Origin: an uncultured Ardenticatenaceae bacterium
GTDB taxonomy: Bacteria; Chloroflexota; Anaerolineae; Promineifilales; Promineifilaceae
DNA: 27,878 bases
Assembly (NCBI GenBank): GCA_964600035.1
Contig: CAZRIB010000005.1
Location: forward strand, 1 to 27,878
Direction of reading: 5' to 3'
Under the pieces are notes generated by a model. The model did no database searches. It worked only from the letters and a program-made list of their open reading frames with translations, and was not told the origin of the DNA. The translations under genes and the position numbers were made by a program. Shown in pieces: positions 50 through 27,837 of this stretch; the stretch's first letter is position 1; the number at the start of each line of letters is the position of its first letter.

Positions 50-1585
50 GTGGCTCAAATAAGTCGTCGAGAATTTCTAAAATTATTGCCAGCCGTTCCA
101 CTTTTCAAAGTGACATGGCCATACCTGGTTACAGAGGCAGCAAAATATCAGCAAGACCCTAACAGCCCCAACATTCTCTTCCTTATCTTCGACACATTTT
201 CCGCCAAACATATTTCCATGTACGGCTACCAAAGGGAGACCACACCCCACCTGGCTGCATTGGCAGAGCGGGCAACCATCTTCCACAGCCACAGGGCAGC
301 GGCAAACTTCACCTCACCGGGGACATCCTCCATTTTGACCGGAACATACCCCTGGACGCACCGTGCCTTTCATTTGCACGGCCTTGTTAATGAGGCATAT
401 GCTGACAAAAACATCTTTAGTCTGCTGCCAGACCATTACCATAAAGCCGCCTACACCCACAATTTGCTGGTTTTTTCCCTGCTGCACCAATTTCGCAGCC
501 ACGTAGATGATTTGCATAAAACCCGGGAACTGTGTTTGTCTGACACGCAGTTTGCCGACCGCCTTTTCTTTAATGATTACAGCCCGGCATTTTGGGGTGA
601 ATGGCTGGCCCTGCGCGGCGGCGCAACACCGCCATCTTCTTTGTTCCTGTCTATGGTAGATCGGGGACGGCGTTTTTTGAATAAACACCAGATTGAAGCG
701 GAATATGCGGCAGATTACCCGCGCGGTATTCCCAATTTGCACAGCCTGTATTTCCGGCTGGAAGATGCGATTGACTGGATTGGTGAGCAGGCGGCAGGCT
801 TGCCACGGCCGTATTTTGGATACTTCCATCTGCTGCCACCTCATGAACCTTACACCACCCACCGCGACTACATTGATGTATTTGCCGATGGCTGGCAGCC
901 CGTTGAAAAAGAAAAGGGTTTTGTTGGCGAAGGTATTCCACAGGCAAAGCTAAACAAAGAGCGGCGGGCTTATGATGAGTATATTGCTTTTGTGGATGCT
1001 GAAATCGGCCGTTTGTTCGCTAAAATGGAAGCGGATGGCGTGTTGGATAACACCTATGTGGTGTTGACATCCGATCATGGTGAACTGTTTGAGCGCGGCA
1101 TTCGCGGCCATGTGACGCGGGCATTGTATGACCCGCTTTTGCATGTGCCGTTGATGATTGTGAAACCCGGTCAGCAAAAACGGGAGGATGTATTTAGCCA
1201 TACCAGTGCGGTTGATTTGCTGCCTACCTTTTTGCATGTAACCGGCCAGCCCGTTCCAGAGTGGGCAGAAGGGCAGATTTTGCCCACATTTACAGATGCC
1301 GCACCAGACGGTCAACGGCCGACTTTTTCACTTGAGGCAAAAAGTAATGCCAAACAAGGCCCGTTAACCAAAGCGACAGCCACGATGGTAAAGGATGATT
1401 ACAAGCTGATTTACTATTTTGGGTATCGGCCAGGGGAAGAGTTGTATGAGTTGTTTGATTTGAAAAATGACCCTGAGGAGTTGACGAATTTGGTTGATGT
1501 GAAAACGGCCGTATTCGCCGACATGCAGACCGAACTAAAACGTAAAATCGAAAGCGTCAACGAACCATTTGCGCACAAATCCTGA
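50..1585 (+). CDS. Tat-exported sulfatase-like hydrolase/transferase (alkaline phosphatase superfamily)
   Basis: N-terminal SRREFLK twin-arginine motif. It has the PNILFLIFDT metal-binding start, TSPGTSSILTG in place of CxPxRxxxLTG, HLLPPHEPY, VVLTSDHGE and LHVPLMI. GTG start preceded by GGAGCA (39-44). Confidence 0.85.
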   Translation: MAQISRREFLKLLPAVPLFKVTWPYLVTEAAKYQQDPNSPNILFLIFDTFSAKHISMYGYQRETTPHLAALAERATIFHSHRAAANFTSPGTSSILTGTYPWTHRAFHLHGLVNEAYADKNIFSLLPDHYHKAAYTHNLLVFSLLHQFRSHVDDLHKTRELCLSDTQFADRLFFNDYSPAFWGEWLALRGGATPPSSLFLSMVDRGRRFLNKHQIEAEYAADYPRGIPNLHSLYFRLEDAIDWIGEQAAGLPRPYFGYFHLLPPHEPYTTHRDYIDVFADGWQPVEKEKGFVGEGIPQAKLNKERRAYDEYIAFVDAEIGRLFAKMEADGVLDNTYVVLTSDHGELFERGIRGHVTRALYDPLLHVPLMIVKPGQQKREDVFSHTSAVDLLPTFLHVTGQPVPEWAEGQILPTFTDAAPDGQRPTFSLEAKSNAKQGPLTKATATMVKDDYKLIYYFGYRPGEELYELFDLKNDPEELTNLVDVKTAVFADMQTELKRKIESVNEPFAHKS

Positions 1586-1630
1586 AACCAACCTGAGTCA
1601 CCTGACACTTTTTTAACAACAAGGAATGGG

Positions 1631-1737
1631 ACACAGATTGACACAGATAAACTCCGTAATCCGTAATTCGTAATTCGTGTGCTCTACCTCTGGTAACTTC
1701 GTCGGAAAACGGTATACGGACTTCGGGTTACGGGTGC
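1631..1737. repeat. Intergenic tandem repeats: ACACAGAT x2, (C/T)CGTAAT x3.5, TACGG-type inverse units
   Basis: ACACAGATTG ACACAGATAA (1631-1650), CCGTAAT CCGTAAT TCGTAAT TCGT (1654-1678) and TACGGACTTCGGGTTACGGG (1715-1734). The last matches the reverse complement of 23404-23421 at 16/18 nt. Confidence 0.8.
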
Positions 1738-1771
1738 TAGATACCAACAAAACAAGAGGAAATTCGGTAAT

Positions 1772-2554
1772 ATGGTAGCCAATTTAAGAAACCTGTATCA
1801 CTATCGAGAAATGCTCGGCATGTGGATCTTCCGTGAGATTCGCGTGCGTTACAAACAATCCTTTTTAGGCGCGGCCTGGGCTATTTTGCAGCCATTGGTA
1901 CTCATGCTCATGTTTACCCTGGTTTTTTCAGTCATGGCGCGCTTCCCCACAGATGGCATTCCATACCCCATCTTTTCCTACACCGCCCTGCTGCCCTGGA
2001 CACTGTTTGCCACATCCGTCAGTTTTGGTGTGTCATCGCTCATCAACAACATGACGCTGGTGACAAAAACGTACTTCCCCAGGGAAGTGCTGCCGATGGG
2101 TGTCATTGGTGCGGCGCTGTTTGATTACCTGATCGCGTCGTCCATTTTCATTGCCATGCTCATCTATTACCAAATTCCGCTGACAATTCACTTTTTGTGG
2201 ATTCCTGTCTTTTTGGTGGTTCAAATTTTCTTGATGATGGGCATTATTTTACTGGGATCGGCCGTAACGGTGTTTTACCGTGATGTGCGTTTTGTGGTGC
2301 CGCTGCTGGTGCAGTTGTGGCTCTATGCCACGCCTATCATTTACCCGGTAACGCTTGTTCCAGAGGCGTATCGCACGTTGTATATGCTTAACCCGATGGC
2401 GGGCATTGTGGAATCTTACCGGCAGGTAATCTTGCGTGGGCAGCCGCCGAATGCGCTGGATTTGGGTCTGGCTGCGGCCGTTTCCGTTAGCCTGTTTGTG
2501 GTGAGTTACATCATTTTTAAGAAACTGGAAGTACGCTTTAACGACATCATATAA
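1772..2554 (+). CDS. wzm: ABC-2 type polysaccharide export permease (Wzm)
   Basis: REIRVRYKQSFLGAAWAILQPL, YATPIIYP and LNPMAGIVESYR motifs; about six TM segments; adjacent to Wzt. Confidence 0.93.
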   Translation: MVANLRNLYHYREMLGMWIFREIRVRYKQSFLGAAWAILQPLVLMLMFTLVFSVMARFPTDGIPYPIFSYTALLPWTLFATSVSFGVSSLINNMTLVTKTYFPREVLPMGVIGAALFDYLIASSIFIAMLIYYQIPLTIHFLWIPVFLVVQIFLMMGIILLGSAVTVFYRDVRFVVPLLVQLWLYATPIIYPVTLVPEAYRTLYMLNPMAGIVESYRQVILRGQPPNALDLGLAAAVSVSLFVVSYIIFKKLEVRFNDII

Positions 2555-2561
2555 AATGTGA

Positions 2562-2623: not shown

Positions 2624-2675
2624 GTACTTTGCTTTAATCGTTAATCATCAATCTTTGTTTTTGAAGGAATTATCT

Positions 2676-3953
2676 ATGAAACCTGCGGTACGATTTGAAA
2701 ATGTATCGAAGAAGTATGTCTTGGGAACCGGGCATTCCAGCCTGGGCGCATTAATTAAAACGCCGGTCAAACGGCTGTTGGGACGTCCTGTGCCGGAACC
2801 CCAGGTGTTGTGGGCGTTGAAAGATGCTTCGTTCGATATTGAACCGGGTAAGGCTTTGGGTTTGATTGGGCCAAATGGCTCTGGCAAGACGACTTCGCTG
2901 AAGCTGCTCTCTAAAATTACGTTTCCGACGTCGGGGCGCATTTCGGTAAACGGCCGTATCTCCGCACTCATCGAACTAGGGGCAGGCTTCCATCCAGACC
3001 TCACCGGGCGCGAAAACGTCTACCTCAACGCCACCATATTAGGCATGAAACGCCACGAAATTGATGCCCGTTTTGACCGCATCGTAGAATTTTCCGGGCT
3101 GGAGCGATTCATCGACACACCCGTCAAACGGTACTCATCCGGCATGTACGTGCGGCTGGGCTTTTCCGTAGCCGCCCATGTGGAGCCAGACATCTTGCTG
3201 GTAGATGAAGTATTGGCAGTTGGCGACGCCCAATTCCGCCAAAAGTGTGCCCGCCGCATTGAAGAGCTGCAAAAAAAGGGCACAACCATCGTATTTGTTG
3301 CCCACAACCTTTACCTGGTAAAAAGCGTGTGTGATGAAGCCGTCTTTTTGCTAAACGGACAAATTCAGGACAAAGGGCCGGTAGATGACGTAATTGGCAG
3401 CTATGAAAAGTACCTGCATGAGCTGCAAGCCCGTTCATTGGAAGAAGAAAAAGTAGACCCCTTGCGCAGCGACAGACAGCGCGGCGTGACCACAAATTTG
3501 AAGATAACCGGCATTGATGTGTTAAATGAGCAGGGTAAAAAGCCGGAACAGTTCCACCACGATGAACCTGTGGAAATCCGCATTCATTACCAGGCAAAAA
3601 AGAAGCTGGAAAAGCCAAATGTCATTTTGCGCATTCGCCGGGCAGATGGCACAACAGCGGCCATGATTCGCACAGCTGATTATGGGATGGCACTGGATCC
3701 ATTGGAAGATAACGGCACGATTTCTTTGAAAATTGACCCCATTCAGTTGGCGGGCGGGGCTTATCTGATTTCTGCTTCATTGCAGGGGCCGGTGGATGGT
3801 GTTGGATTGGCCTGGGCAGATTCTCGCTGGTTCCAGGTGTCGGGTGTGAGTGTGAGCTTTGAAGAAAGCGGCGGCGTTTTTGTGCCGAATTTGGCGGCTG
3901 CCAAAGTGATCCCCGGGAATGTGAATCCGCGGGGTGAAAGTGTGCGGGTATAA
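2676..3953 (+). CDS. wzt: Polysaccharide export ABC ATPase (Wzt) with C-terminal Wzt_C carbohydrate-binding extension
   Basis: Walker A GPNGSGKTT, signature YSSGMYVRLGF, Walker B ILLVDEVLAVGD, and a ~170-aa C-terminal extension. Start moved to ATG 2676 (after AAGGA) because the ORF-track extension from 2565 only translates an intergenic repeat hairpin. Confidence 0.93.
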   Translation: MKPAVRFENVSKKYVLGTGHSSLGALIKTPVKRLLGRPVPEPQVLWALKDASFDIEPGKALGLIGPNGSGKTTSLKLLSKITFPTSGRISVNGRISALIELGAGFHPDLTGRENVYLNATILGMKRHEIDARFDRIVEFSGLERFIDTPVKRYSSGMYVRLGFSVAAHVEPDILLVDEVLAVGDAQFRQKCARRIEELQKKGTTIVFVAHNLYLVKSVCDEAVFLLNGQIQDKGPVDDVIGSYEKYLHELQARSLEEEKVDPLRSDRQRGVTTNLKITGIDVLNEQGKKPEQFHHDEPVEIRIHYQAKKKLEKPNVILRIRRADGTTAAMIRTADYGMALDPLEDNGTISLKIDPIQLAGGAYLISASLQGPVDGVGLAWADSRWFQVSGVSVSFEESGGVFVPNLAAAKVIPGNVNPRGESVRV

Positions 3954-3959: not shown

Positions 3960-3964
3960 GGCAT

Positions 3965-5659: not shown

Positions 5660-5665
5660 AACAAA

Positions 5666-7090: not shown

Positions 7091-7107
7091 TACTGGAAAA
7101 GTGTGTC

Positions 7108-8457: not shown

Positions 8458-8575
8458 TTATTGAGTCTGCCGAAAAAACCGCAAAGAGCACAAAGAAACG
8501 CCAGAGAAAAAATTTGTGAAATTCGTGAAATTCGTGGCTTTTTTCGGGGCAGTCATATTTGCACTTTTTAGTTTT

Positions 8576-10183: not shown

Positions 10184-10188
10184 CAACT

Positions 10189-10258
10189 TGTGGCAAGTGT
10201 GCATGTGGCAAGTAACGTGACTTGCAATCTGCAACCTGCCACCTGCAAACCTGCCACC
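10189..10258. repeat. GTGGCA/TGCCAC heptamer-family inverted repeat cluster
   Basis: TGTGGCAAGT x2 (10189-10198, 10204-10213), then GACTTGCA ATCTGCA ACCTGCC ACCTGCA AACCTGCC ACC. Same family as 2562-2623. Confidence 0.8.
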
Positions 10259-11161: not shown

Positions 11162-11253
11162 TTGATGATTAAAGCAAACAAGTGCATACCAATGCTTCTT
11201 TAACCTTTACGCTTTTAATCATTGCTCACTACCACCATCAAGGCACACTTTTT

Positions 11254-12504
11254 ATGCGGATTTTGGTTATAACCAATTATTACCCCCCTTTTGAACAGGG
11301 CGGGTGGGGACAATTAACTTACGATGTCGTACAGCAGTTAAAATCGCGAGGCCATGAGGTGTTGGTGTTAACCAGCCAGCACCGCCGCAGTGAGCTGCCT
11401 GCGCCGGAAGAGGGTGTGGAACGGACGCTTTTTTTGGAAAGCCCGGATCACATCCATTACAAAATGAAATATACATTGGCTTACCGTCGGGAGGAGGCTG
11501 CCAACAAGCGAATTGTGGCACATCACTGCCGCCAATTTGCCCCGGATGTGGTGTATGTAAATGGCATGTGGAATTTGCCGGTTTGTGTGGCGCAAACGGC
11601 CGAATCCTGTTTACCCGGTCGTGTGGCCTACTACATGGCCAGCTATTGGCCTGCCGAACAGGATGCCCACTCTGCTTTTTGGCAGGATATGCCGGATGGC
11701 TGGAAGCGGCTGCCCAAACAGTTGGTTGGACAGGCGTTGGTAAATTGGTGGCTTAAACCTGCTGCCCGCAACCGGCTGGATTTTCGGGTTGTGATGTGTG
11801 TGAGTGATTATTTGCGGCGGCGCATTGTGGCTGAAGCGGGTATTCCCGAAGAACGGACGCGGGTGGTGTATAACGGAATTGATTTGGCTGATTTTCCGTT
11901 ACGGCCGTTACCCGCACACACAAGCAGCACCCGCACCTTGAAACTGCTTTACGCCGGACGCTTTCATCCTGACAAAGGTGTCCATACCGTAATCGAAAGC
12001 CTGGGGCAGTTATGGCAAAAAACGCCATCCCTGCCGGTTTCTGTAACATTGGTAGGCAAGGGCGCACCGGCTTACGAAGAAGAACTGCATCATCTGGTAC
12101 AAAAACTGGGCATCGCAAACTGGATAACCTTCAAGCCATTTGTGGCTCGCGAAAAGATGCCCGCCATACTTAGAGAACACGACGCACTCATATTTCCATC
12201 GATTTGGCCGGAACCACTGGCCCGTATGGTACAAGAGGCAATGGCTTCTGGCTTGATTGTCATCGGTACAACCACTGGCGGTACACCGGAGATTTTGCAA
12301 GACGGCCGTAACGGCCTGACATTCCCGGCAGGGAATGCCGCCATGTTGGCAGAAAAAATCTTATGGCTGACCCAAAACCAAGATCAATGGCACAATCTGG
12401 CACAGGCTGCCCGAAAAACAGTGGAACAGCAATTTACACTCAACCGGATGGTGAACGAACTGGAAGCGCAGTTCGACCAACTCATTCAGACCAAGGCGAA
12501 GTGA
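11254..12504 (+). CDS. Glycosyltransferase family 4
   Basis: MRILVITNYYPP (start moved to ATG 11254), VVYNGID, LLYAGRFHPDKGV and PSIWPEPLARMVQEAMASG. Confidence 0.92.
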   Translation: MRILVITNYYPPFEQGGWGQLTYDVVQQLKSRGHEVLVLTSQHRRSELPAPEEGVERTLFLESPDHIHYKMKYTLAYRREEAANKRIVAHHCRQFAPDVVYVNGMWNLPVCVAQTAESCLPGRVAYYMASYWPAEQDAHSAFWQDMPDGWKRLPKQLVGQALVNWWLKPAARNRLDFRVVMCVSDYLRRRIVAEAGIPEERTRVVYNGIDLADFPLRPLPAHTSSTRTLKLLYAGRFHPDKGVHTVIESLGQLWQKTPSLPVSVTLVGKGAPAYEEELHHLVQKLGIANWITFKPFVAREKMPAILREHDALIFPSIWPEPLARMVQEAMASGLIVIGTTTGGTPEILQDGRNGLTFPAGNAAMLAEKILWLTQNQDQWHNLAQAARKTVEQQFTLNRMVNELEAQFDQLIQTKAK

Positions 12505-13561: not shown

Positions 13562-14926
13562 TTGACCAAACCAAACGTCGTCTTGCTAACAATTGACACA
13601 TTACGCCTGGATCGTCTGGGCTGTTTTGGCTGTAACAAACCGCTGACCCCCAATATTGACCGGCTGGCGGCTGAAGGTGTGCGTTTTTCGCAGGCCATTA
13701 CCGGTGGTTCATGGACGCAGGCTTCTTTCCCTGTCATCATGACATCGACTTATGCGTCGATGTATGGTGGCTGTTTGGGGAAATTGTCTGCGGAACGGCC
13801 GTCTCCCGCAGACGCACTGACCAAACACGGCTACCGCACAGCCGCCTTCTCCACCAGCCCCCTCCTTAGCCGCGCCTATGGCTACGACCGCGGCTTCCAG
13901 CACTTTGTAGACCTTATTCCCAACGAAAAAGACCCGGCCTTGCGAGAAATGAAAGGCGGCCAGCGCCTGCTGCGCAGTCCACTGACCCATAAAGTAAGCA
14001 AAGCCATTGGCAAGCAAACCCGGCCAGCCAAGGTCTATGTGGATGCGGGCGATTTAATTGATGCCGCCAGTCAGTGGATGGGAGAAGATGCGCATCCTTT
14101 CTTTGCCTGGGTGCATTTTATGGATGTGCACTGGCCTTACCACCGGGAAGACGCGCTTTCCAAGCCAGAGGAAATTGCACAAGCCTGGCGCGATTTGTCC
14201 CACCTGCATGAGGCGAACTGGAACGGCGCGCCCATCAGCCCGGAGCAGCGCGACCATTACATCCGTTTGTATGAGGACGCATTGGTGTATACCGACGCGC
14301 AAATTGGCCGTTTGTTAGACGATATGGCGGCCAGAGGTGTGTTGGATAATACGATTATTGTGTTGGTGTCTGATCACGGTGAGGAATTTTTGGAACACGG
14401 CCGTTGGGGACATTGGGAAGATAACCTGTATGATGAAATTTTGCGGGTTCCGCTTATTTTTCGTCTGCCAGGACTGGATGGCGCACGCAATATCTCGCGG
14501 CAGGTAAGCACCATCGACATTATGCCAACGATTCTGGATTTGTGTGGCTGCCCGCCGCCGACTGGCATGTTGGGGCATTCTCTTGTGCCGCTTTGGCAGG
14601 AGCCAGGTGCGGATTATCCAGTGGAAACGGCCGTTACCGAAATGTGGCGCGACCATTGGCACATCATTGCCGTGCGCACAGAGACCCATAAATATATCTG
14701 GGACAGCAAAAAGCCGGATGCATCTCGCCTGTATGATTTGCTCAACGACCCGGAAGAACGGGTAAACGTCGCTGACCGCCATCCCGACATTGTGCGAAAG
14801 TTGCATTCTGTTGTAGATGCCCGGCTGGCTGATATGGCGCTGACTGCCCCGGAAACGGCCGTTACCGAACCCACCCTCGACGACGATGTGCTGGCCCGTC
14901 TGCGTGGACTGGGTTACGTGGAATAA
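13562..14926 (+). CDS. Sulfatase-like hydrolase/transferase (alkaline phosphatase superfamily), no signal peptide
   Basis: PNVVLLTIDTLRLD, SWTQASFPVIMTS, WVHFMDVHWPY, VLVSDHGEEF, LRVPLIF and C-terminal LRGLGYVE. TTG start after GGAGCA (13552-13557). Confidence 0.87.
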   Translation: MTKPNVVLLTIDTLRLDRLGCFGCNKPLTPNIDRLAAEGVRFSQAITGGSWTQASFPVIMTSTYASMYGGCLGKLSAERPSPADALTKHGYRTAAFSTSPLLSRAYGYDRGFQHFVDLIPNEKDPALREMKGGQRLLRSPLTHKVSKAIGKQTRPAKVYVDAGDLIDAASQWMGEDAHPFFAWVHFMDVHWPYHREDALSKPEEIAQAWRDLSHLHEANWNGAPISPEQRDHYIRLYEDALVYTDAQIGRLLDDMAARGVLDNTIIVLVSDHGEEFLEHGRWGHWEDNLYDEILRVPLIFRLPGLDGARNISRQVSTIDIMPTILDLCGCPPPTGMLGHSLVPLWQEPGADYPVETAVTEMWRDHWHIIAVRTETHKYIWDSKKPDASRLYDLLNDPEERVNVADRHPDIVRKLHSVVDARLADMALTAPETAVTEPTLDDDVLARLRGLGYVE

Positions 14927-17396: not shown

Positions 17397-18808
17397 CTTC
17401 TTTGAGACGTTTGACCCACAATGAAGCATTGCAGCGCAAGGTGATTAAAGCCCTCATAATTATTGGGGTGCCTGTGTTGGGCTTTGCCCTGGTGCAGTAC
17501 CGGTCAGATACGATGATGCTGGCGGCGCTGCTGGCTGTGCCGCTGGGGCTGCTGGCTGTTACGCTGCTGCTGCGCTGGCCGCCGTTGGGGTTGCTGGCTG
17601 TGGTGGCTGTGGCGTTGATTGTGCCGTTTGATATTCCGCGTGTGGGTACGGTGGCGATTATGTTGGCCGGGTTAACGGCCGTTTGGCTGGGTGATATGTT
17701 CATGCGGCAGAGGCGGCTGGTTTTTGTGGTGTCTCCTACCATTCCGCCGCTGATCATGTTTACGGCCGTTGTCATCCTCTCCTTCATCATCGGCCAACTG
17801 CCCTGGTTTTACGTCTCCCAGGTTCCCATCGACCGGCAAATCGGCGGTGCAGCCATCTTCATTCTCTCCTTCGCCGCCTTCTTCATGGCCGCCCACCAAA
17901 TCCGCGACATCAAATGGCTAAAATACATGGTATTCGGTTTTATCGTACTGGCCATTCCATCCATCATATTTGGCCTGCGCATTTTACCCGCCCAAACATC
18001 CTTCCGGCTAAACCGCATGATTTACAGCACAAAAATCACCGGCGGCAGTCTGTATTGGTTGTGGCTTGCCGCATTCATTTTTAGCCAAATTTTAATCAAC
18101 AAAAAATTAGACAACCGTCTGCGAATCATTATGGCGTTTTTGTTAGTCGGGCAGTTCTATCTGGCAATGGGACGCAAGCGTGCCTGGACATCAGGTTGGT
18201 TTCCGGCACTCGTTTCATTGGCAATCATCCTGGTGGCATACCGGCCTAAGCTGGCTTTGCCGTTAACCTTAGGGGCGCTGTTGGTTGGGGCACTGGGTTC
18301 TCAGCAAATATATGATGCCGTATTTATTGGTGACAATGAATACAGCGCCATCACCCGCCTGGAAGCCTGGACAATCGTCACGGAAATCGCCAAAAAGAAC
18401 CCTATTCTGGGGCTTGGGCCAGGAAATTATTACAACTACACCACACTTTACTCCATTCGCGGCTGGTACGTGCAGTTTAATTCGCATAACAATTATGTGG
18501 ACATTCTCGCGCAAACCGGCATTTTGGGCATTATTTGTTTTTTGTGGTTTGCGGTGGTGGCTGGACGGCTGGCATGGCGGCTGCGTACTTTAGTGCCCAA
18601 AGGCGGTTTTACAGAAGCGTACGTATTTGGGGCGCTGGGTGGGCTGGTAGGCAGTATGGCCGCTGCCATGTTAGGTGATTGGGTGCTGCCCTTTGTGTTC
18701 AACATCGGCATTTTTGGCCTGCGTGCCAGCATCATTTTCTGGTTGGTAATGGGGGGGCTGGTTGCCATTGACCAGATGCTGATTAAAAAAATTCCAATTG
18801 ATGATTGA
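17393..18808 (+). CDS. O-antigen ligase / Wzy_C family membrane protein (possible O-oligosaccharyltransferase)
   Basis: About 12 TM segments. The late loop contains TRLEAW, PILGLGPGNY and HNNYVDILAQTGILG, the conserved His region of Wzy_C/WaaL. Confidence 0.85.
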   Translation: MTSLRRLTHNEALQRKVIKALIIIGVPVLGFALVQYRSDTMMLAALLAVPLGLLAVTLLLRWPPLGLLAVVAVALIVPFDIPRVGTVAIMLAGLTAVWLGDMFMRQRRLVFVVSPTIPPLIMFTAVVILSFIIGQLPWFYVSQVPIDRQIGGAAIFILSFAAFFMAAHQIRDIKWLKYMVFGFIVLAIPSIIFGLRILPAQTSFRLNRMIYSTKITGGSLYWLWLAAFIFSQILINKKLDNRLRIIMAFLLVGQFYLAMGRKRAWTSGWFPALVSLAIILVAYRPKLALPLTLGALLVGALGSQQIYDAVFIGDNEYSAITRLEAWTIVTEIAKKNPILGLGPGNYYNYTTLYSIRGWYVQFNSHNNYVDILAQTGILGIICFLWFAVVAGRLAWRLRTLVPKGGFTEAYVFGALGGLVGSMAAAMLGDWVLPFVFNIGIFGLRASIIFWLVMGGLVAIDQMLIKKIPIDD

Positions 18809-18921
18809 TTTCTGTAACGGGTATGTAAGCGGCAAGCAGTATGACTTGCAGCCTGCAAACCTGTAACGTGTCGTTGCTTTCATCCATTAACCATCAATCA
18901 TGACTTCACCAAAAAAGAAAT

Positions 18922-18993
18922 TGCGGAGGCGCAAAGGACGCGGAGAATTTGAAGTTATCAGAGAAAAATCTTTGTGTTCTCTGCGCCTCTGCG
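18922..18993. repeat. 9-mer-based imperfect inverted repeat (23-bp stem)
   Basis: TGCGGAGGCGCAAAGGACGCGGA (18922-18944) pairs with TTTGTGTTCTCTGCGCCTCTGCG (18971-18993); most deviations are G:U-compatible. Confidence 0.8.
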
Positions 18994-19049
18994 GTGAATT
19001 TAACCTTTTTTCAATGAACTCAATCTTTATTTTCAAAGGTGACTGACCT

Positions 19050-19874
19050 ATGTTTTCACAAATCGTATCCATAGCAGGGGAAGAACTCCGCTACCAATAC
19101 GTGCAAATTCGTCAAAAATTGACCCAAAACCACCACATACCAGCTAAAGTGCTGGTCAATGGCAGCCCCAAATCGGGCACAACCTGGATGGTGAAATTGA
19201 TTTCGTCTCTACCCGGCTACCGGGAAGTAGGCAATTATCAGGGGGATTTTCAAAAGTATTATCAGAGCGAATCGGGGGATGTCATTCATGGGCATGATCC
19301 GTTTTCTTTGGAATTAAAGCAGATTTTGGCTGAAGCAGGAATCAAGGTTGTGTTGATGGTGCGAGATCCACGTGATCAGTTGGTCTCGCGGATGTTCCAC
19401 ATAAAGCGCAGCCCCAAGCATGTCTGGCATGATCGCATGCAGGATATTGGCGTTGATGAAGCGTTGATGATGTGTATTGAAGGGCGTGAAAATTTACCGG
19501 CTACCAGTCAGGTAATTGCGCTTGCCCAGACGTGGATGGTTCCTGAAGCGGAGATGTTGTGTGTGCGTTATGAAGATATGCTGGCTGATCCGGTGACGCA
19601 TTTTTCCAAGGTGATGCAGTATATTGGCATGGAAGCGGATCATTTGCTGGCGCGGGTGGTGGTGGAGCGTAATCGCTTTGAGCGCCTGTCTGTGGGGAAG
19701 CGTATCTGGCAGCAGCAGCGGCGGCCTGGCCAGGAAGATGCCAACTCTCATTTTCGCAAGGGGATTGCGGGTGACTGGCGTAATTATTTGAAGCCGGAGC
19801 ATATTGCCCGTTTTAAGGAGTTGGCTGGCCGCCAGTTGATTGAGTTGGGCTATGAACAGGATATGGATTGGTAG
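19050..19874 (+). CDS. Sulfotransferase (Sulfotransfer_1-like)
   Basis: 5'-PSB GSPKSGTTW, 3'-PB MVRDPRDQLVS, and C-terminal RKGIAGDWRNY matching the RKGxxGDWKNxF motif. Confidence 0.9.
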   Translation: MFSQIVSIAGEELRYQYVQIRQKLTQNHHIPAKVLVNGSPKSGTTWMVKLISSLPGYREVGNYQGDFQKYYQSESGDVIHGHDPFSLELKQILAEAGIKVVLMVRDPRDQLVSRMFHIKRSPKHVWHDRMQDIGVDEALMMCIEGRENLPATSQVIALAQTWMVPEAEMLCVRYEDMLADPVTHFSKVMQYIGMEADHLLARVVVERNRFERLSVGKRIWQQQRRPGQEDANSHFRKGIAGDWRNYLKPEHIARFKELAGRQLIELGYEQDMDW

Positions 19875-19880
19875 CCTGTG

Positions 19881-20798
19881 ATGGTGAAGCTTTCTGTTGT
19901 GATTGTTAGCTGGAATACGGCCGATTTGCTGCGGGCATGCTTGCGCTCTGTTTATGAGCATCCGCCAACGGTGACGTTTGAGGTTTGGGTGGTGGATAAT
20001 GCGTCGCATGATGGTAGTGCGGAGATGGTGCGGCGTGAGTTTCCGCAGGTGAAACTGGTGGCGAAGGATGTGAATGGGGGGTTTGCGGCAGGAAATAATG
20101 AGGCGCTGCCGCTGTGTGCCGGGGAGTATGTGCTGTTGTTGAATCCTGATACGGTGGTGAAGCCGAATGCGCTGCAAGCGTTGGTGGATTTTTTGGATGA
20201 AACGCCGGATGCAGGCGCGGCGGGGTCGATGCTGTTGAACCCGGATGGTTCTTTGCAGCCGTCGGCTTTTCCGGCGCCGACGCTGCGGCGGGAGTTGTGG
20301 CGGTTGTTTCATTTGGACAGGATACGGCCGTATGGCATTTACCACATGCAGCAGTGGGACACGGCCGTTCCCCGTGAAGTAGACGTACTGCAAGGGGCAT
20401 CCTTGCTCATTCGCCGCGACATTTTGAACCAGATTGGCTTGTTCGACACAACCTACTTTATGTACTCCGAAGAAGTCGATTTATGCCGTCGGCTGCAGTT
20501 GGCTGGCTGGCGGTTGTATTGGGTTCCTGCTTCTCGCGTGGTGCATTATGGCGGGCAAAGCACCCGGCAAATTGCAGAGCAGATGTTTATTCAGCTTTAC
20601 CGGGGCAAGCTGCTTTATTTTCGCAAGCATTACGGCCGTTTTCATGCGTGGGCATACAAAGCAGTTTTGGCACTGGCTTCCGTGGCGCGGCTGGCACTCA
20701 CCCCGCTGGTCGTGGTGCAGTCCGCCGAAAAACGGCAGCAAAGCCTGACATTGGCGCGGTATTATGCCCATCTTGTCAAAGCCATTCCCTCCTTTTAA
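19881..20798 (+). CDS. Glycosyltransferase family 2 (WbbL-like)
   Basis: LSVVIVSWN, VVDNASHDGS, GFAAGNN, LLLNPD and YFMYSEEVDLCRR. ATG 19881 or GTG 19878. Confidence 0.92.
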   Translation: MVKLSVVIVSWNTADLLRACLRSVYEHPPTVTFEVWVVDNASHDGSAEMVRREFPQVKLVAKDVNGGFAAGNNEALPLCAGEYVLLLNPDTVVKPNALQALVDFLDETPDAGAAGSMLLNPDGSLQPSAFPAPTLRRELWRLFHLDRIRPYGIYHMQQWDTAVPREVDVLQGASLLIRRDILNQIGLFDTTYFMYSEEVDLCRRLQLAGWRLYWVPASRVVHYGGQSTRQIAEQMFIQLYRGKLLYFRKHYGRFHAWAYKAVLALASVARLALTPLVVVQSAEKRQQSLTLARYYAHLVKAIPSF

Positions 20799-22066: not shown

Positions 22067-22110
22067 TCTTTCATCCATCAATCATCAACCTTTATTCACA
22101 GGAGCAACAG

Positions 22111-23403
22111 ATGCTTAACCGCGTGTGGGAAAATCCTCGCCGAACATTAACAGCCATCATTATCGTGGCGGTGCTGCTGCGGGTGGGGGCAGCGCTGTAT
22201 ATTGGCAACACCATCGAAGCGCTACCCGGCATTTTTGATGAAGTGTCTTACCATACGCTGGCGCTGCGGGTGCTGGATGGGCATGGTTTTTCTTTTGGTG
22301 AACGGTGGTGGCCGGCAACGGCCGCAAACGCCCCAACCGCACACTGGTCCTTTTTGTACACGCTGTACCTTGCCGGAATTTATGCCCTGGTTGGCGAATC
22401 GCCTTTGGTGGCGCGGGTGATTCAGGCGGTGTTGGTGGGGATTGCCATGCCCTGGCTGGCGTTTCGGTTGGCACTGCTGGTGTTTGCGCAGTGGGGGCAA
22501 AAGTATGCGGAAAAGGTTGGGCTGGCGGCGGCGGCGGTAACGGCCGTGTACATTTATCTCTTTTACTATGCGGCTGCACTCATCACCGAAAGTTTCTACA
22601 TCACCGCCATCATGGCTTCGTTCTACTTTGCCTTTCGTATCCAGAAGGCCCAAAATGCCCGGCTGTCTGATTGGGTGTGGCTGGGTGTTTGTTTAGGGGT
22701 GACTGTGCTGCTGCGGCAGTTGTTTTTGTTGTTTGTGCCGTTTTTGCTGCTGTGGCTGTGGTGGGCAGTGCGCCCGTCGTTGTGGCGGCTGGTCTTGCCT
22801 CTTGTTCTCATCGGTATGATGGTGGCCCCTTTTACCGTGCGTAATCAGCGCGTATTCGGCCGTTTTGTCCTGCTCAATACCAACTCCGGGTATGCTTTCT
22901 TTTGGGGCAACCACCCCCGGTACGGCACAAAATTCATTCCTATTTTGCCTTCCCGCGAATATTACGAAATGATTCCCGATGAACTGTTGGCGCAAGGGCT
23001 AAATGAAGCGGAACTGGAGTCTGAACTTTTATCTTTGGGCTTGGGGTTTGTTTTTGATGATTTCGGCCGTTACATCAAACTGTCATTAAGTCGCATTCCT
23101 GCTTACTTTGTTTTCTGGCCGTCGTCACAATCATCTACCATTTCCAACATTTCCCGCGTGGGCAGTTTTGGCCTGTTTTTGCCTTTCATGGTGTATGGGC
23201 TGGTGTTGGGTTTGCGCAAACGGGCTGCTTCATTTGCCGATTGGCTGCGTATGCCGCAAACGCTGCTGGTGCTGTTCATGTTGTTTTACACAGCCCTGCA
23301 CGTGCTTACGTGGACACTGATTCGTTATCGGATTCCAATTGATGCGATATTGATTTTGTATGCCGGTTTAGCGCTGGTAACAATTGAAGAAAAAATCTTT
23401 TAG
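22111..23403 (+). CDS. ArnT/PMT (GT39-like, GT-C) membrane glycosyltransferase
   Basis: Polytopic, with IFDEVSY acidic loop, ITESFY, LLRQ, PFTVRN and RYRIP. GGAGCA at 22101-22106. Confidence 0.78.
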   Translation: MLNRVWENPRRTLTAIIIVAVLLRVGAALYIGNTIEALPGIFDEVSYHTLALRVLDGHGFSFGERWWPATAANAPTAHWSFLYTLYLAGIYALVGESPLVARVIQAVLVGIAMPWLAFRLALLVFAQWGQKYAEKVGLAAAAVTAVYIYLFYYAAALITESFYITAIMASFYFAFRIQKAQNARLSDWVWLGVCLGVTVLLRQLFLLFVPFLLLWLWWAVRPSLWRLVLPLVLIGMMVAPFTVRNQRVFGRFVLLNTNSGYAFFWGNHPRYGTKFIPILPSREYYEMIPDELLAQGLNEAELESELLSLGLGFVFDDFGRYIKLSLSRIPAYFVFWPSSQSSTISNISRVGSFGLFLPFMVYGLVLGLRKRAASFADWLRMPQTLLVLFMLFYTALHVLTWTLIRYRIPIDAILILYAGLALVTIEEKIF

Positions 23404-23468
23404 CGTAATCCGAAGCCCGTACACCCGTGATTGGGATGCAGATAACGGGTTACGGGCAACGGATTACG
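23404..23468. terminator. Long imperfect hairpin between convergent genes; candidate bidirectional terminator built from CCGTAAT/TTACGG heptamers
   Basis: CGTAATCCGAAGCCCGTACACCCGTGAT (23404-23431) pairs with ATAACGGGTTACGGGCAACGGATTACG (23442-23468). It starts immediately after the + strand stop (23403) and ends 8 nt before the - strand stop (23477). There is no clear U-tract. Confidence 0.55.
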
Positions 23469-23476
23469 GATACCGT

Positions 23477-24589
23477 CTACATACCAAAACAGTAATTTGT
23501 AAAGAAGCAGATGCGCCAGCTTATCCAGCCGATTTGTGAGAACAGGTACCACAGGTATGCGCCAATGAGCAGCACTCCGGCGTAACGGCCGATTGCCCAG
23601 CGCCGTACGATTAACAAAAACAACAGCGCTATCACCGTTGCAAACAAGAGAATAACAGAAGATTCCAGGTTTTCTGTAACAACCTGCATATTTTCACCGC
23701 GCCACAAAATGATGAACACCCAGGGCAGGCCCAGCCCAATGGCAATATCGAAGATGTTGGAGCCGACAGCATTGGCAATGGCCATGTCGCCTTGTCCTTT
23801 TCTGGCAACGACAATGGAACTCATCAGGTCGGGAATGCTGGTTCCGGCGGCCAGAATGGTGAGAGCGATGATGACTTCTGGTACACCGATGGCGTGGGCA
23901 ATTTGTACGGCCGATTCCACCATGAGGTGTGAAAGCAAGGCCAGAAAAATGATGGAGACGGCAAAGTTGAAGATGAGGAGATGCGGCCGTTTCCGCAAAT
24001 CGGCAAAAAAGAGCGACAACGTTTTGTCCAGCACATTGCGCCATGTCCACCCGCTGGCACGCAGGGCTTGTTGGGGACTTTCCTCCTCCTCCTCATTTTG
24101 CGCATTATCCGCCTCAATTTCATAAGGCAGCCACTTCTTCCACAGGCCAAACGAGAACAAGTAAACGACATACAAGCTCACATACATGAGCGCGTCAACC
24201 AGAGTGATGGTGCCATCTCGAAACGTAAACAGCAGCAGCAAGATGCAGACAATGTAAAAAATCAGGTCACGGATGACAGGCTGCCATGTCAGCACAGCCC
24301 GTTTAACCAATGCCGAAGCCCCAATAATGACCAAAATGTTAAAAATGGCTGACCCCACAATTGTGCCAGCACCCATTGCCTGCTGTTCCTGCACCCGAAA
24401 CAGCGCCAAAATGGAAACAAACAACTCCGGTGCAGATGAGCCGACTGCCATGAACGTAGCCCCGGCAATATCGGAGGAAAGTTTCAGCCGGTCAGAGATA
24501 ATTTCCAGCGTTTCAACAAAATAGACTTCTACAACCTGGGCGAGCAGGTAAAAAGCCAGTAACAGTTCCAAAATCCACAGGATGATCAT
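23477..24589 (-). CDS. Calcium/sodium antiporter (CaCA family, NCKX-like)
   Basis: Alpha-1 repeat GATFMAVGSSAPELF...GTIVGSAIFNIL and alpha-2 repeat ILAAGTSIPDL...GDMAIANAVGSNIFDI. Two 5-TM halves joined by an acidic loop (NEEEEES). Confidence 0.9.
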   Translation of the reverse strand: MIILWILELLLAFYLLAQVVEVYFVETLEIISDRLKLSSDIAGATFMAVGSSAPELFVSILALFRVQEQQAMGAGTIVGSAIFNILVIIGASALVKRAVLTWQPVIRDLIFYIVCILLLLFTFRDGTITLVDALMYVSLYVVYLFSFGLWKKWLPYEIEADNAQNEEEEESPQQALRASGWTWRNVLDKTLSLFFADLRKRPHLLIFNFAVSIIFLALLSHLMVESAVQIAHAIGVPEVIIALTILAAGTSIPDLMSSIVVARKGQGDMAIANAVGSNIFDIAIGLGLPWVFIILWRGENMQVVTENLESSVILLFATVIALLFLLIVRRWAIGRYAGVLLIGAYLWYLFSQIGWISWRICFFTNYCFGM

Positions 24590-24955
24590 GATTACTTTTT
24601 TGCTTCCTTGTTTGTTGGTGTGTGCCTGTTTTGTACGGCGAGATTTTTACAGGGTCAGAAGGATACACGCAAATTGAAAAACACAAAAACTGAAGGCGGG
24701 TTGGTGTAAGCCGGTTGGTAAGAAAGGATCGTTACTATTCCACTGTAAAAGCCAACAATGATAAATAGCTTGGTTACATGTTGAACTTTTTTCTGAAATG
24801 GGGGAGCCATCGTGAACGGCTGGGCAAACCACAAAAGGTGTTTGAGTGTGAGAACATCTTTTTCCTTGTGGGCTGCTTGTGTAATTGGCAAAAAATCCCG
24901 GGTGTTTTTGTGCTAATTGCATCACACATTGTTGGCGCCATGAATTTATCTGCTT

Positions 24956-26182
24956 ATGGATGTACTCTTTATTGTTCCCTATGTGCCCAATTTGGTGAGG
25001 ACACGCCCCTATAACTTTATTCGAGCATTGAGTGAGCGCGGTAACCGGGTGACGGTGTTGACTGTGCGCGCCAGTGAAGCGGATGAGGCGGATTTGGCTG
25101 CGCTGCGAAAGATGGTGTATGCGGTGGAGGCGGTGTCTTTGCCTGTTTGGCGTTCCCTGCTGAATTGTTTGCCGGCTTTGTTGTCGGGTGTGCCTTTGCA
25201 AACACGCTTTTCGTGGGATGCGGGTCTGTTTTCGCGGTTAAACGGCCGTTTCCCCTTTGACGTGGTTCATGTCGAACACCTTCGTGGCGTGCGCTATGCC
25301 CTGCATCTCAAAAAACACACCCAACTACCCGTTGTATGGGACAGCGTAGACTGCATTACCCATTTGTTTAAGCAGGCCGCTGCACAAAGCAAAAACAATA
25401 TGCTTCGCTGGCGCAGCCGCTTTGAATTGGGGCGCACAGAGCGGTATGAGCGGTGGCTTTTGGACAAATTTGACCAAATTTTGGTGACGTCGCATCTGGA
25501 TAGGGAAGCGATGCAGTCGCTGAACCCCCAACAGCCAGCACCCATTACGGTGGTTCCCAATGGGGTGGATTTGAACTATTTTCGGCCAGACACGGCCGTT
25601 ACCCGGCAAGAAAAATCACTCGTTGTCAGCGGCAAGATGAGCTACCACGCCAATATCAGCATGGTGCTGCATCTTGTGGAAAAAATTATGCCGCATGTGT
25701 GGCAAGAACAGCCAGACGTGACCCTCACCATTGTGGGCAAAGACCCGACCAAAGAGGTGGTGGCATTGGCTGAACATCCAAACATTACAGTAACGGGGAC
25801 GGTGCCGGAGATACGGCCGTATCTCCAACAAGCCGCCATCGCCCTCACCCCACTCACTTACGGCGCAGGTGTCCAAAACAAAGTACTGGAAGCAATGGCC
25901 TGCGGCACACCCGTTGTCAGCACAACACGCGCCATCAAACCGCTGGGTGTCCAGCCGGGGCGCGCTCTCCTGGCTGCCGATGACCCGGCCCAATTTGCCC
26001 GGCACGTCCTGGAACTGCTGGCAAACCCGGCACAACGCGCCCAAATCGGCCGTGCCGCCAGAGCATACGTAGAACAGAACCACAACTGGCACACACTGGC
26101 TGGAGACCTGGAGCAAATTTACCAACAAGCAAAACATCAACACAACCCGGTATTCAAACAAGCCGCCACAGCCGCAAAATAG
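24956..26182 (+). CDS. Glycosyltransferase family 4
   Basis: VVPNGVDLNYF, VSGKMSYHANI and GAGVQNKVLEAMACGTPVV. Confidence 0.92.
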   Translation: MDVLFIVPYVPNLVRTRPYNFIRALSERGNRVTVLTVRASEADEADLAALRKMVYAVEAVSLPVWRSLLNCLPALLSGVPLQTRFSWDAGLFSRLNGRFPFDVVHVEHLRGVRYALHLKKHTQLPVVWDSVDCITHLFKQAAAQSKNNMLRWRSRFELGRTERYERWLLDKFDQILVTSHLDREAMQSLNPQQPAPITVVPNGVDLNYFRPDTAVTRQEKSLVVSGKMSYHANISMVLHLVEKIMPHVWQEQPDVTLTIVGKDPTKEVVALAEHPNITVTGTVPEIRPYLQQAAIALTPLTYGAGVQNKVLEAMACGTPVVSTTRAIKPLGVQPGRALLAADDPAQFARHVLELLANPAQRAQIGRAARAYVEQNHNWHTLAGDLEQIYQQAKHQHNPVFKQAATAAK

Positions 26183-26253
26183 GTCATTTTCAACGAATTA
26201 GAATCGTTGCAATTAGTTTGTGTAATGGAACAATAGCAAAGGTGTAGCAGTCC

Positions 26254-27231
26254 ATGATCATTGTGCAATCCCCATTAAGAGTTAGTTTGTTCGGCGGCGG
26301 AACCGATTTCGCCGACTTTTACAAGGAACATGGCGGGTGTGTCCTGTCCTCCGCCATCGACAAATTCATCTTCGTCACCATAAAACAGCGTTTTGATGAC
26401 AAAATTCGCGTTGGCTACACACGAACAGAAATGGTAGACAGCATCGATGAAATTCAACACGAATTGATTCGAGAAGCACTCCGGGTTACGGGCATCCAAA
26501 AAGGGGTGGAAATTACCACAATGGGCGACATCCCCTCCGAAGGTTCGGGGCTGGGTTCTTCCAGCACAGTTACCGTAGGGGCTTTGCATGCCATGTATGC
26601 CTACCAAAAGGAATTGGTGCTGTCGGAGCGGTTGGCGCGGGAAGCCTGCTACATTGAAATTGAAAAATTAGGAAAGCCCATTGGTATCCAAGACCAATAC
26701 ATTGCGGCTTATGGTGGTTTGCGTTTTATGGAATTTATGCCGGATGGGCGGGTAGTTGCTAATCGTGCTGTCTTTGATGACCATACGCTGCGCCGTTTGA
26801 ATGAAAACCTGCTTTTGTTCTTTACAGGTGTTACGCGCAAAGCCGATAACATTCTTTCAGAACAAAAAAGCAACATTCAGGATAAAACATCAATTTTGTG
26901 CCAGATGAAATCCATTGCTTACACAGCGTTTCAGGAACTGCAAAAAGGGCATTTTCGGGCGATTGGTGAGCTTTTGGATGAGAGCTGGCAGTTGAAGAAG
27001 CGGCTGGCCAGCCAAATTAGCAACGGTGTGCTGGATGAGATGTATGAAACGGCAAAGGCGGCCGGGGCAATTGGCGGCAAAATTTCAGGCGCGGGCGGCG
27101 GCGGTTTTTTGTTGGTTTATGTGCCTAAAACACATCATGAGGATGTGCGGCAGGCGTTGAGTCATTTGCAAGAATTACCGTTTCGATTGGGGCAGGATGG
27201 CAGTAAGGTCATTTTTGATTATCAACGATGA
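26254..27231 (+). CDS. hddA: D-glycero-alpha-D-manno-heptose-7-phosphate kinase (GHMP kinase)
   Basis: [31 protein letters not shown] and [12 protein letters not shown]; adjacent to gmhA. Confidence 0.85.
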
Positions 27232-27240
27232 GGAGCAGCG

Positions 27241-27837
27241 ATGAATCACGTAAGACATTATTTTTCGGAAATAACAGAGACTTTGACGCGCATTGATGAA
27301 GGCCCGATTAATCAGGTGATTGGTTTGCTGCATGAGGCACGGGTAAACGGCCGTCAAGTGTTCATCATGGGCAACGGCGGCAGTGCATCCACCGCATCCC
27401 ATTTTGTATGCGACCTGGCCAAAAACACCCGCCAGCCAGATTGGCCGCATTACCGCGTTATCGGCCTTACAGACAATATGGCTATCTTTTCTGCCTATGC
27501 CAACGATGAAGGGTATGAAAACGTCTTTGCCATGCAGCTCGCCAATCTGGTACAGCCGGGAGATGTCGTTATCGGCATTTCAACCAGCGGCAACTCGCAG
27601 AATGTATTGCGTGGCATTGCCCTGGCCAATGAAAAAGGGGCTACAACAGTCGGTTTTACCGGTTTCGATGGCGGTAAATTGGCAGGAATGGTTGATATTC
27701 ATTCCCACACACCCAGTTATTGCATTGAACACGTCGAAGATATTCACTTGATGCTGGAGCATTTAATTACCAAAGTGCTGCGGGAGATGACAGAAACCGT
27801 TGCTGTTGAGCAATGTCTTGGCACATCTGTGTCATAA
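27241..27837 (+). CDS. gmhA: Phosphoheptose (sedoheptulose-7-phosphate) isomerase, SIS domain
   Basis: [44 protein letters not shown] and EDIHLMLEH. Confidence 0.88.

Follow-up and report, generated by a model that had tools for sequence, protein, structure and literature searches.

The window and its palindrome

We analysed a 27,878-nt stretch of DNA (the window), which is contig C5 of a 4.35-Mb metagenome-assembled genome (MAG) of a hot-spring Anaerolineae bacterium (G000; 706 contigs, 52% G+C, 97% complete, 3.4% contamination), and the 8-base palindrome ACGGCCGT that recurs along it. The window DNA is present in hot-spring metagenome runs, and members of the same 90% protein clusters, i.e. 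close relatives, bear the name Candidatus Promineifilaceae. The Wzt protein encoded in the window has its best genome-contig match in an uncultured Anaerolineae MAG. The gene content is an ordinary polysaccharide cluster, encoding a Wzm/Wzt ABC exporter, many GT4 and GT2 glycosyltransferases, sulfotransferases, sulfatases and an O-antigen-ligase-like protein; the sole gene on the minus strand encodes a Na/Ca exchanger. All results below are sequence statistics, uncorrected for kinship among genomes.

We found 53 copies of ACGGCCGT in the window (1.9 per kb), against 0.46 expected from dinucleotide shuffles. Upstream of these sites the forward strand is rich in G, and downstream it is rich in C: the excess of G over C upstream minus that downstream (10-150 bp) was 18.0, compared with -0.05 ± 2.35 at random positions (z = 7.7). 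From one site to the next, GC skew at third codon positions climbed through the fifths of the gap as -0.27, -0.02, 0.17, 0.27 and 0.54. An earlier, sequence-only reading of this DNA had counted the flips by hand; all 53 sites lie exactly where it had listed them, and its counts were reproduced within ±1 (Table 1).

Table 1. Palindromes, site-free gaps and other features of the window
Feature	Position	Observation
Array of 53 ACGGCCGT palindromes	805..27354	Each is a downward jump of the sawtooth
Site in Wzt ABC-ATPase gene (ABC_tran + Wzt_C)	2950..2957	Third positions 16/20 G/T before, 17/20 C/A after
Site in GT4 glycosyltransferase gene	11901..11908	Raw G:C 18:10 before, 10:24 after
Site in sulfatase gene, strong flip	13795..13802	Raw G:C 19:10 vs 10:31; third positions 15/20 then 18/20; site kept in both sister lineages
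Close site pair	17675-17682 + 17762-17769	G/T 18/20 before first; C/A 2/20 after first, 14/20 after second
Long site-free gap, 2.55 kb	17770..20323	One full tooth: C/A-rich, then neutral, then G/T-rich
Long site-free gap over the minus-strand Na/Ca exchanger gene	22548..25241	Holds one-mismatch motif variants
Na/Ca exchanger gene, minus strand	23480-24589	Sole minus-strand gene
One-mismatch variant GCGGCCGT in the minus-strand gene	23983..23990	G:C 23:5 before, 12:17 after
Site in GT4 gene	25813..25820	Raw G:C 21:11 vs 9:26; third positions 13/20 then 17/20
Site-free gap, 1.5 kb	25821..27346	One tooth of the sawtooth
Small dispersed intergenic repeats	8480-8555, 10223-10258, 13512-13536, 18926-19010	blastn-short, window intergenic DNA vs G000
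Replaced segment of 80 bp, lying between two genes	11152-11233	In sister-lineage contigs
Paired +1/-1 indels few bases apart, frame restored	14795-14801, 17373-17375	In sister-lineage contigs
Small deletions clustered at gene end	22044-22076	In sister-lineage contigs

The skew forms a sawtooth across the genome

Using our own crude gene calls (3,244 genes, 85% of the genome), we found that third-codon GC skew genome-wide is about +0.45 immediately 5' of a ACGGCCGT site and about -0.45 immediately 3' of it. In a metaplot of 7,091 sites, raw GC skew fell from +0.28 at 1-10 bp upstream to +0.03 at 300-400 bp, with the mirror image downstream, and the T-over-A skew shares the sign of the GC skew beyond ~10 bp from the site. 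The effect is concentrated at third positions and 4-fold degenerate sites (about ±0.45 to 0.5 within 20 bp); first and second codon positions have a weaker skew, and the skew is also present in intergenic DNA. At 4-fold sites of plus- and minus-strand genes, respectively, skew was +0.46 and +0.52 upstream and -0.48 and -0.47 downstream, and the sign is identical for genes on both strands and in both replichore classes. The genome bears out the sequence-only reading on three counts: the motif fixes where the flip occurs, the change is mostly synonymous, and minus-strand genes show no reversal of polarity.

Between adjacent sites, third-position GC skew rises near-linearly from about -0.4/-0.55 to about +0.4/+0.55 and is zero at mid-gap, so that the decay and rebuilding first described for the site-free gaps of the window proved general: the sawtooth was seen for gaps of 200 bp to 4 kb, with larger amplitude in longer gaps. 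Across gaps of 1.0-1.4 kb skew went from -0.49 to +0.52 with the zero crossing at mid-gap; in the 2-4 kb class it started at -0.54 and ended at about +0.5/+0.66. About 7,600 inter-site teeth were measured from the 8,329 sites of the genome.

To describe the reach of a site, we fitted a logistic model to third positions, with the G-versus-C log-odds as the sum of one term for the closest site on the left and one for the closest on the right. The kernel falls with distance: 1.9 (up to 25 bp), 1.4 (100 bp), 1.0 (400 bp), 0.57 (1 kb) and 0.26 (2.5 kb). The influence of one site reaches 1-3 kb, with a half-decay of ~0.6 kb. Second-neighbour sites add about one third; therefore, sites are partial stops only. 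The close pair in the window fits such an additive kernel, since its short gap remains G-rich and the flip is complete past the second site.

Most of the shift is between G and C. With the two gene orientations averaged, 4-fold sites had A.17, C.33, G.33 and T.17 at mid-gap and A.13, C.20, G.47 and T.20 upstream of an otherwise isolated site, i.e. a change of about +0.15 for G, -0.13 for C, +0.02 for T and -0.04 for A. G+C at these sites is constant while the purine fraction rises from 0.50 to 0.61, and at third positions beside isolated sites G:C reaches ~7:1.

The skew needs the full palindrome

Genome-wide, random positions and 15 control palindromes were flat. So were CGGCCG cores that lack the A..T flanks (n = 614) and GGCC sites with at least two outer mismatches; the CGGCCG or GGCC core is therefore not enough without the full 8-mer context. 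One-mismatch variants retain roughly one third of the effect, and altering just one half-site weakens the skew on both sides without abolishing it on either; GCGGCCGT, the variant found in the minus-strand gene, has ~40% of the full-site skew at short range (n = 589 genome-wide). The neighbouring bases count as well: with A/T at -1/+1 the amplitude was 0.23-0.24, and with G/C 0.10-0.12. A symmetric process directed by the site, as first proposed from the window, is the sole reading that survives these controls.

Several simpler causes were rejected. Residual k-mer asymmetries (k = 3-8) were small and codon-like, and no word explains the skew, which removes polar oligomers similar to Chi or the FtsK-orienting polar sequences (KOPS). 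Mirrored flank positions (1-200 bp) were no more complementary than base frequencies predict and were statistically independent; therefore, there is no extended hairpin or larger repeat unit such as a repetitive extragenic palindrome (REP) or a miniature inverted-repeat transposable element (MITE). The same amplitude, 0.131, was found in two independently assembled sister lineages; hence the sawtooth is not an assembly artefact. Taken with the gene-strand and control-palindrome tests, these results refute codon usage, amino-acid composition, a repeat unit and an assembly artefact.

The sawtooth is also separate from replication. Overall third-position GC skew of contigs of at least 6 kb is bimodal, with peaks near -0.15 and +0.12 (about ±0.13), a pattern that agrees with two replichores and that could help to orient the contigs of this fragmented assembly. 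Contig-level means looked one-sided; fitted separately, the upstream and downstream kernels were both present in both replichore classes, plus a constant offset, and had a similar distance dependence in positive- and negative-skew contigs. Therefore, models tied to the fork direction, to Okazaki fragments or to Pol I patches are rejected.

Hence, the data require a process that acts on DNA, reads a target of ~10 bp as a palindrome and works in both directions over kilobases, with a partial halt where the next site lies; neither transcription nor fork direction affects it. The anatomy, specificity, range and symmetry of the sawtooth are direct observations, as are the site conservation and the substitution asymmetries reported below.

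The palindrome is highly iterated and conserved

ACGGCCGT is by far the commonest 8-mer of G000, with 8,329 copies compared with only 131 of the reversed word. Coding DNA holds 88.5% of the copies, and all three frames are used (ACG-GCC-GTx 55%, xAC-GGC-CGT 31%, xxA-CGG-CCG-T 14%). Sites are evenly spread (0.84-3.6 per kb on contigs of at least 8 kb); the median inter-site gap is 338 bp, with short gaps depleted and multiples of three enriched. Hence, ACGGCCGT is a highly iterated palindrome (HIP) of the cyanobacterial HIP1 kind, which the sequence-only reading had not recognised.

Only six site-free stretches exceed 4 kb in G000. One of them, C326:1-4293, has a G+C of 0.42 compared with 0.52; it is therefore possibly a recent acquisition, and this DNA may not yet have gained the motif.

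Site conservation is high. In a three-way alignment of lineages 10-13% apart, whose third positions are about a quarter diverged, 138 of 157 motif columns were intact in all three, where a rough neutral expectation is about one third. Sites that are not shared differ mostly by transitions (e.g. ACAGCCGT and ATGGCCGT); all the differences are base substitutions with no length change over the 8 columns, columns gapped in any lineage being excluded.

The word varies among relatives and the polarity does not

Among 121 genomes of the family, about 67 carry thousands of copies of ACGGCCGT and six carry thousands of TGCCGGCA instead; the latter has 4,000-8,850 copies in G015 and genus g31, and G012 uses TCGGCCGA at 1.3 per kb. 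Sister genera (G012, G015, G031, G060, G079, G093, G106) thus have other iterated palindromes, of the form W-SSSSSS-W. We found identical skew polarity for ACGGCCGT, TCGGCCGA (G012) and TGCCGGCA (G015), even though the inner half-sites of TGCCGGCA have the opposite G/C order to those of ACGGCCGT.

The amplitude varies widely. Measured on samples of 29-440 kb per relative, the raw sawtooth amplitude was 0.13 in G000 and G002, 0.115 in G016, 0.10 in G018, 0.06-0.07 in G008, G010, G011, G012 and G015, 0.02-0.03 in G004 and G013, and 0.010 ± 0.009 in G006. Genomes rich in CCGGCCGG had no skew. On plasmid alpha of Nostoc sp. PCC 7120 (NC_003276; 249 HIP1 sites) we found skew of the same polarity, 0.09 at 1-20 bp and 0.04 at 21-60 bp, and none beyond 60 bp from HIP1 sites on this one replicon. 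The comparison of genomes suggests that an iterated palindrome motif with same-polarity skew is a trait of the family whose specificity can change.

The asymmetry still operates

We aligned five G000 contigs with sister lineages A (~10% diverged) and B (~12%; A and B differ by ~13%), which left 68 kb of three-way columns for analysis. Parsimony with an outgroup at ~12% served to polarise changes on branches W and A, and columns were oriented to the strand that runs 5' to 3' toward the nearest site. Near sites, the rate ratio of A>G to T>C was 1.52 (95% confidence interval (CI) 1.31-1.77), that of C>T to G>A 1.10 (0.94-1.29), that of C>G to G>C 1.38 (0.94-2.02) and that of T>G to A>C 1.28 (0.89-1.85). 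These recent rates imply a stationary GC skew of 0.21 (0.10-0.30) compared with 0.38 at present. Hence, the asymmetry is still operating but is weaker than whatever built the present composition; parsimony and the distant outgroup limit the numbers.

The sequence-only reading had named C-to-T deamination of an exposed strand as the observed direction, which the data do not support: it is A>G over T>C that is clearly skewed, and the third-position total rate is 0.0912 near sites and 0.0951 at mid-gap. Deamination also leaves the rise in purine fraction from 0.50 to 0.61 unexplained; transitions alone cannot produce this shift. Hence, the asymmetry lacks a cytosine-deamination signature and comes with no measurable extra mutation.

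Metagenome mapping recovered sister-lineage contigs ~8% diverged from the window, with about 2,250 differences. The indels, replaced segment and clustered deletions listed in Table 1 come from sister-lineage contigs. Depth spikes and many contig joints were seen in the metagenome runs at the intergenic repeats of the window, which include a CCAATCT-type heptamer run with ~77 genomic matches and two elements of 76-85 bp with ~30-50 genomic matches.

Candidate enzymes

In the 97%-complete G000 we found no C5 methyltransferase and no Vsr, MutH or NucS. The genome encodes three MutS paralogues, MutL, ComEC, DprA and four N4/N6 methyltransferases, two of which adjoin BanI-like and TdeIII-like restriction enzymes. 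The remaining two show no co-distribution with the motif across 30 relatives, other m6A (N6-methyladenine) families not having been searched: the orphan enzyme on C295 is in only 2 of the 30, and a 684-aa enzyme is equally common in motif-free and motif-rich genomes. This gene content lends no support to the methyl-directed repair that the sequence-only reading had suggested as a driver.

The two type II restriction-modification pairs lie on C183 and C92 (BanI-like, of the GGYRCC family, and TdeIII-like), and the methyltransferase of the BanI-like pair has an HNH-repeat tail. The orphan on C295 is 314 aa long and has two neighbours without family assignment.

G000 encodes dndC followed by dndD on C630 (2,078 bp, cut at both ends), a contig that carries four copies of ACGGCCGT. 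The DndC match reaches 368 bits, where the cut-off is 290; DndD is represented by its N-terminal half and, at 245.8, falls just short of its cut-off of 245.85. In Streptomyces lividans, Dnd modifies GpsGCC cores; DndD probably nicks the target during sulphur insertion, and oxidised phosphorothioate (PT) links break and are repaired. Together, PT chemistry and DndD would give site-specific nicks on both strands (review PMC6435447). ACGGCCGT likewise has a GGCC core. DndC was above cut-off in 14 of the 121 family genomes, and 13 of these 14 are motif-rich compared with 60 of the other 107 (odds ratio 10, Fisher p = 0.008, kinship not corrected). DndC-positive genomes tend to have larger amplitude, with overlap (4 vs 8 genomes, one-sided p = 0.04, not independent); outside the two sister lineages of G000, the three largest amplitudes belong to the DndC-positive G002 and G018 and to the DndC-negative G016.

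One driver put forward by the sequence-only reading, the Dnd type, is thus encoded, as the dndC-dndD module, and is a candidate source of site-specific nicks in G000 only. Dnd cannot be the general cause in the family: DndC is missing from most motif-rich relatives, including many with skew. No skew accompanies GGCC sites other than the palindrome. We found no report of flanking skew in Dnd hosts in the literature.

Proposed opening of the site and outward strand replacement

We favour, tentatively, a reading in which the palindrome would be nicked or broken on both strands and the strand that leaves the site 5' to 3' would be replaced outward. A sequence-specific dimeric factor would read the 8-mer, with a preference for A/T at -1 and +1, and both strands of the DNA would be opened there, through nicks or a break. 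On either side, removal and replacement of the strand pointing 5' to 3' away from the site would extend a variable distance, from hundreds of bases to ~3 kb, with a partial stop at the next site; the new DNA could come from repair synthesis or from strand exchange with a second copy of the genome. The strand that stays, its 3' end pointing at the site, would become rich in G and, less so, in T. Since every site would act both ways, synonymous positions genome-wide would form a sawtooth. By geometry, the observed polarity matches that of a strand left single or retained after 5'-to-3' removal from a nick or break at the site. We infer the nick, the 5'-to-3' direction of strand replacement and the source of the bias.

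That bias may come from damage or copying errors during replacement or from filtering of the heteroduplex by mismatch repair. The data lean to filtering because there is no excess rate, G>A and T>C are reduced, and the shift is toward purines with exchange of G for C. If filtering operates, the incoming strand would need its 5' end at the site, and recombination at a gap initiated by a nick fits better than 3'-first uptake.

Several results weigh against outward strand replacement as we propose it. The unraised total rate near sites and the lower G>A and T>C there than at mid-gap (ratios 0.85 and 0.82) fit a fixation bias, i.e. biased conversion, better than damage to an exposed strand; the C>T asymmetry in the 68 kb of three-lineage alignments is not significant; and the recent rates sustain only about half of the present skew. 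In addition, G006 (3 contigs, 97% complete) carries 4,499 copies of ACGGCCGT (0.6 per kb) with no sawtooth; therefore, motif abundance and skew are separable. As to Dnd as the source of nicks, DndB was not found in G000 with the model tried, and the DndE (Pfam) and DndH-type (TIGR03237) models gave no match in G000, nor in control genomes. DndC was not found in the near-complete, motif-rich and skewed G008, G011 and G015, while G010 has DndC but merely average skew. Finally, the absence of skew at GGCC outside the 8-mer is not predicted by a plain GpsGCC specificity.

Alternative explanations

Some of these points would be accounted for if strand-polar biased gene conversion were the main cause and the palindrome an entry signal for recombination or DNA uptake, like the DNA uptake sequences (DUS) and uptake signal sequences (USS), a role now also proposed for HIP1; we regard this as unlikely, though likelier than the alternatives below. 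Heteroduplex beside a site would pair the resident strand running toward the site with an incoming strand running away from it, and mismatch repair would reject the mismatches that it recognises well (G.T, G.G and purine.purine) while passing C.C, pyrimidine.pyrimidine and A.C. Fixation would then favour G and purines on the strand that runs to the site, without raising mutation, in line with the near-site rate, with the reduced G>A and T>C, and with a purine fraction that rises as G is gained at constant G+C of third positions. The MutS recognition hierarchy predicts this gain if the 5' end of the incoming strand sits at the site. Natural transformation, however, is known to import a strand 3' end first, and 3'-first import plus cutting at the site would give the opposite polarity. 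Conversion would also depend on a hypothetical frequent exchange between differing genome copies, and the rate contrasts on which it draws are modest and based on parsimony with a 12% outgroup. The conservation of 138 of 157 sites is as expected of a self-propagating uptake or conversion signal, and MutS, MutL, ComEC and DprA are all encoded, but the four proteins are near-universal, so they do not discriminate. In cyanobacteria, HIP1 raises transformation efficiency and correlates with pilus and competence machinery (PMC13756078).

A second alternative makes the palindrome a barrier: repair or excision tracts, or a translocase, would start at random and halt at the site, stopped by a bound protein or by a nuclease-resistant PT link. 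The balance of leftward and rightward tracts would then shift linearly between sites, as an inverted version of the N-shaped skew domains that lie between fixed replication origins of mammals. The near-linear skew, the growth of amplitude with gap length, and a fractional-position fit almost as good as that of the additive kernel agree with this; so do the partial stops seen through second neighbours at about one third, the nuclease resistance of PT links and the presence of dndCD. We nonetheless hold a barrier to be improbable. The observed sign needs the new strand to be G/T-rich, whereas normally it is the exposed template that gains G and T; a protein acting as the barrier is only hypothetical; and the additive kernel with leaky second neighbours fits better (log-likelihood -317,108 vs -317,898). 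The pure fractional-position form of the model, which fits slightly worse, was rejected.

Mismatch repair directed by modification, Elhai's model for HIP, would use the hemi-modified palindrome as a strand signal: a MutH-like nickase would cut the new strand, with 5'-to-3' excision as far as the mismatch. Since such excision would span the DNA from site to mismatch, tract lengths would follow the spacing of sites, and the polarity would be right if excision is only 5' to 3'; MutS and MutL are encoded, and PMC4390886 proposes the model for HIP1. In G000 the model is very improbable, as MutH, Vsr, NucS and a C5 methyltransferase were not found in this 97%-complete genome, and neither the C295 nor the 684-aa methyltransferase follows the motif; by a rough estimate, moreover, events triggered by mismatches are too rare to drive synonymous evolution to the ~7:1 G:C near isolated sites.

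Direct selection on flank composition (DNA mechanics, protein sliding or the loading of recombinase on G/T-rich tails) or a trivial cause (codon usage, amino acids, repeat, artefact) is scarcely credible: RecA and Chi-type sequences favour G/T-rich strands and the immediate flank consensus is roughly GG.AA-site-TT.CC, but the effect is largest at 4-fold sites and spans kilobases and about a million sites, so that selection per site would be vanishingly weak, while no oligomer carries the signal, mirrored positions are independent, the sign is independent of gene strand, and the pattern occurs in three independent assemblies.

Comparison with known systems

HIP1-type palindromes have been known for three decades and have no agreed function. 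Like HIP1 (GCGATCGC) and the alternate cyanobacterial HIPs, ACGGCCGT is a G+C-rich octameric palindrome at 1-2 per kb, mostly in genes and in all three frames, spread by substitution, with conserved sites and a word that varies between lineages. It differs in its Chloroflexota host, in its words (W-CGGCCG-W and T-GCCGGC-A), and in the kilobase-range, two-sided strand skew, which for HIP1 on Nostoc plasmid alpha is only short-range. Related genomes share HIP1 sites far more often than neutral evolution predicts (Xu et al. 2018, PMC5861425), the HIP word differs between related cyanobacterial lineages, and a methyltransferase that recognises the inner sequence is expected alongside a HIP and with the same distribution (Elhai 2015, PMC4390886); for this last we found no cognate C5 methyltransferase in G000. 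A term search of PMC4390886 and PMC5861425 gave no mention of flanking strand skew, and full-text literature searches gave no report of it; for ACGGCCGT itself the full-text matches were only primers and the like. An iterated palindrome outside cyanobacteria adds a new member to a known class; the sawtooth anchored on it is absent from the HIP1 literature read or searched.

Other systems share parts of the pattern. The DUS of Neisseria and the USS of Pasteurellaceae are likewise found at ~1 per kb inside genes and conserved by drive or selection, and G000, as their hosts do, has competence genes (the generic ComEC and DprA). Unlike ACGGCCGT, DUS and USS are not palindromes, and we know of no strand skew flanking them. 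Chi and KOPS are also G/T-rich sequences oriented relative to the direction of DNA processing, but they are specific oligomers oriented by replichore, whereas here no single oligomer exceeds what base composition predicts, and the orientation starts afresh at each palindrome.

Replication strand skew has the same contrast of G/T-rich and C/A-rich strands, with each ACGGCCGT site resembling a terminus. Unlike replication skew, the sawtooth would count ~8,000 'termini' per 4.3 Mb, its teeth are 0.05-4 kb long, and it is two-sided in either replichore class, with the ordinary replichore skew of about ±0.13 (third positions) added on top. To our knowledge, its amplitude (±0.5 at third positions) is larger than any bacterial replication skew. 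The sawtooth changes linearly between fixed points, as do the N-shaped skew domains that Touchon in 2005 and Huvet in 2007 reportedly described in mammalian genomes.

The polarity switch at the site is the same as in strand-coordinated mutation clusters that reportedly flank yeast double-strand breaks, on the 3'-ended strand to either side after 5'-to-3' resection (the work of Yang in 2008 and Roberts in 2012). Those clusters reflect C-centred damage in single cells, unlike the sawtooth, which is long-term, consists mainly of A>G and G-for-C changes, and comes with no rise in rate. We know of no bacterial parallel for a sawtooth of strand composition anchored on a palindrome.

Significance

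With a little more reserve than for the mechanism itself, we suggest that opening of the palindrome and outward replacement, in some genomes maybe tied to phosphorothioation, sets synonymous composition chromosome-wide above replication or transcription. If site opening with outward replacement is true, the sawtooth would be the first physical footprint of the function of HIP-kind palindromes, as entry points for strand replacement or exchange. Such a footprint makes the action of a site measurable: in its polarity, in its tract length, in how far it leaks past the next site and in how it depends on the 10-bp context. The sawtooth amplitude (0.01-0.13 among relatives) is a purely computational assay that can be correlated with gene content such as dnd. 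The sawtooth also shows that strand asymmetry in a bacterium can owe more to a local process anchored at sites than to replication and transcription, with consequences for skew-based origin finding, codon-usage models and the binning of such genomes.

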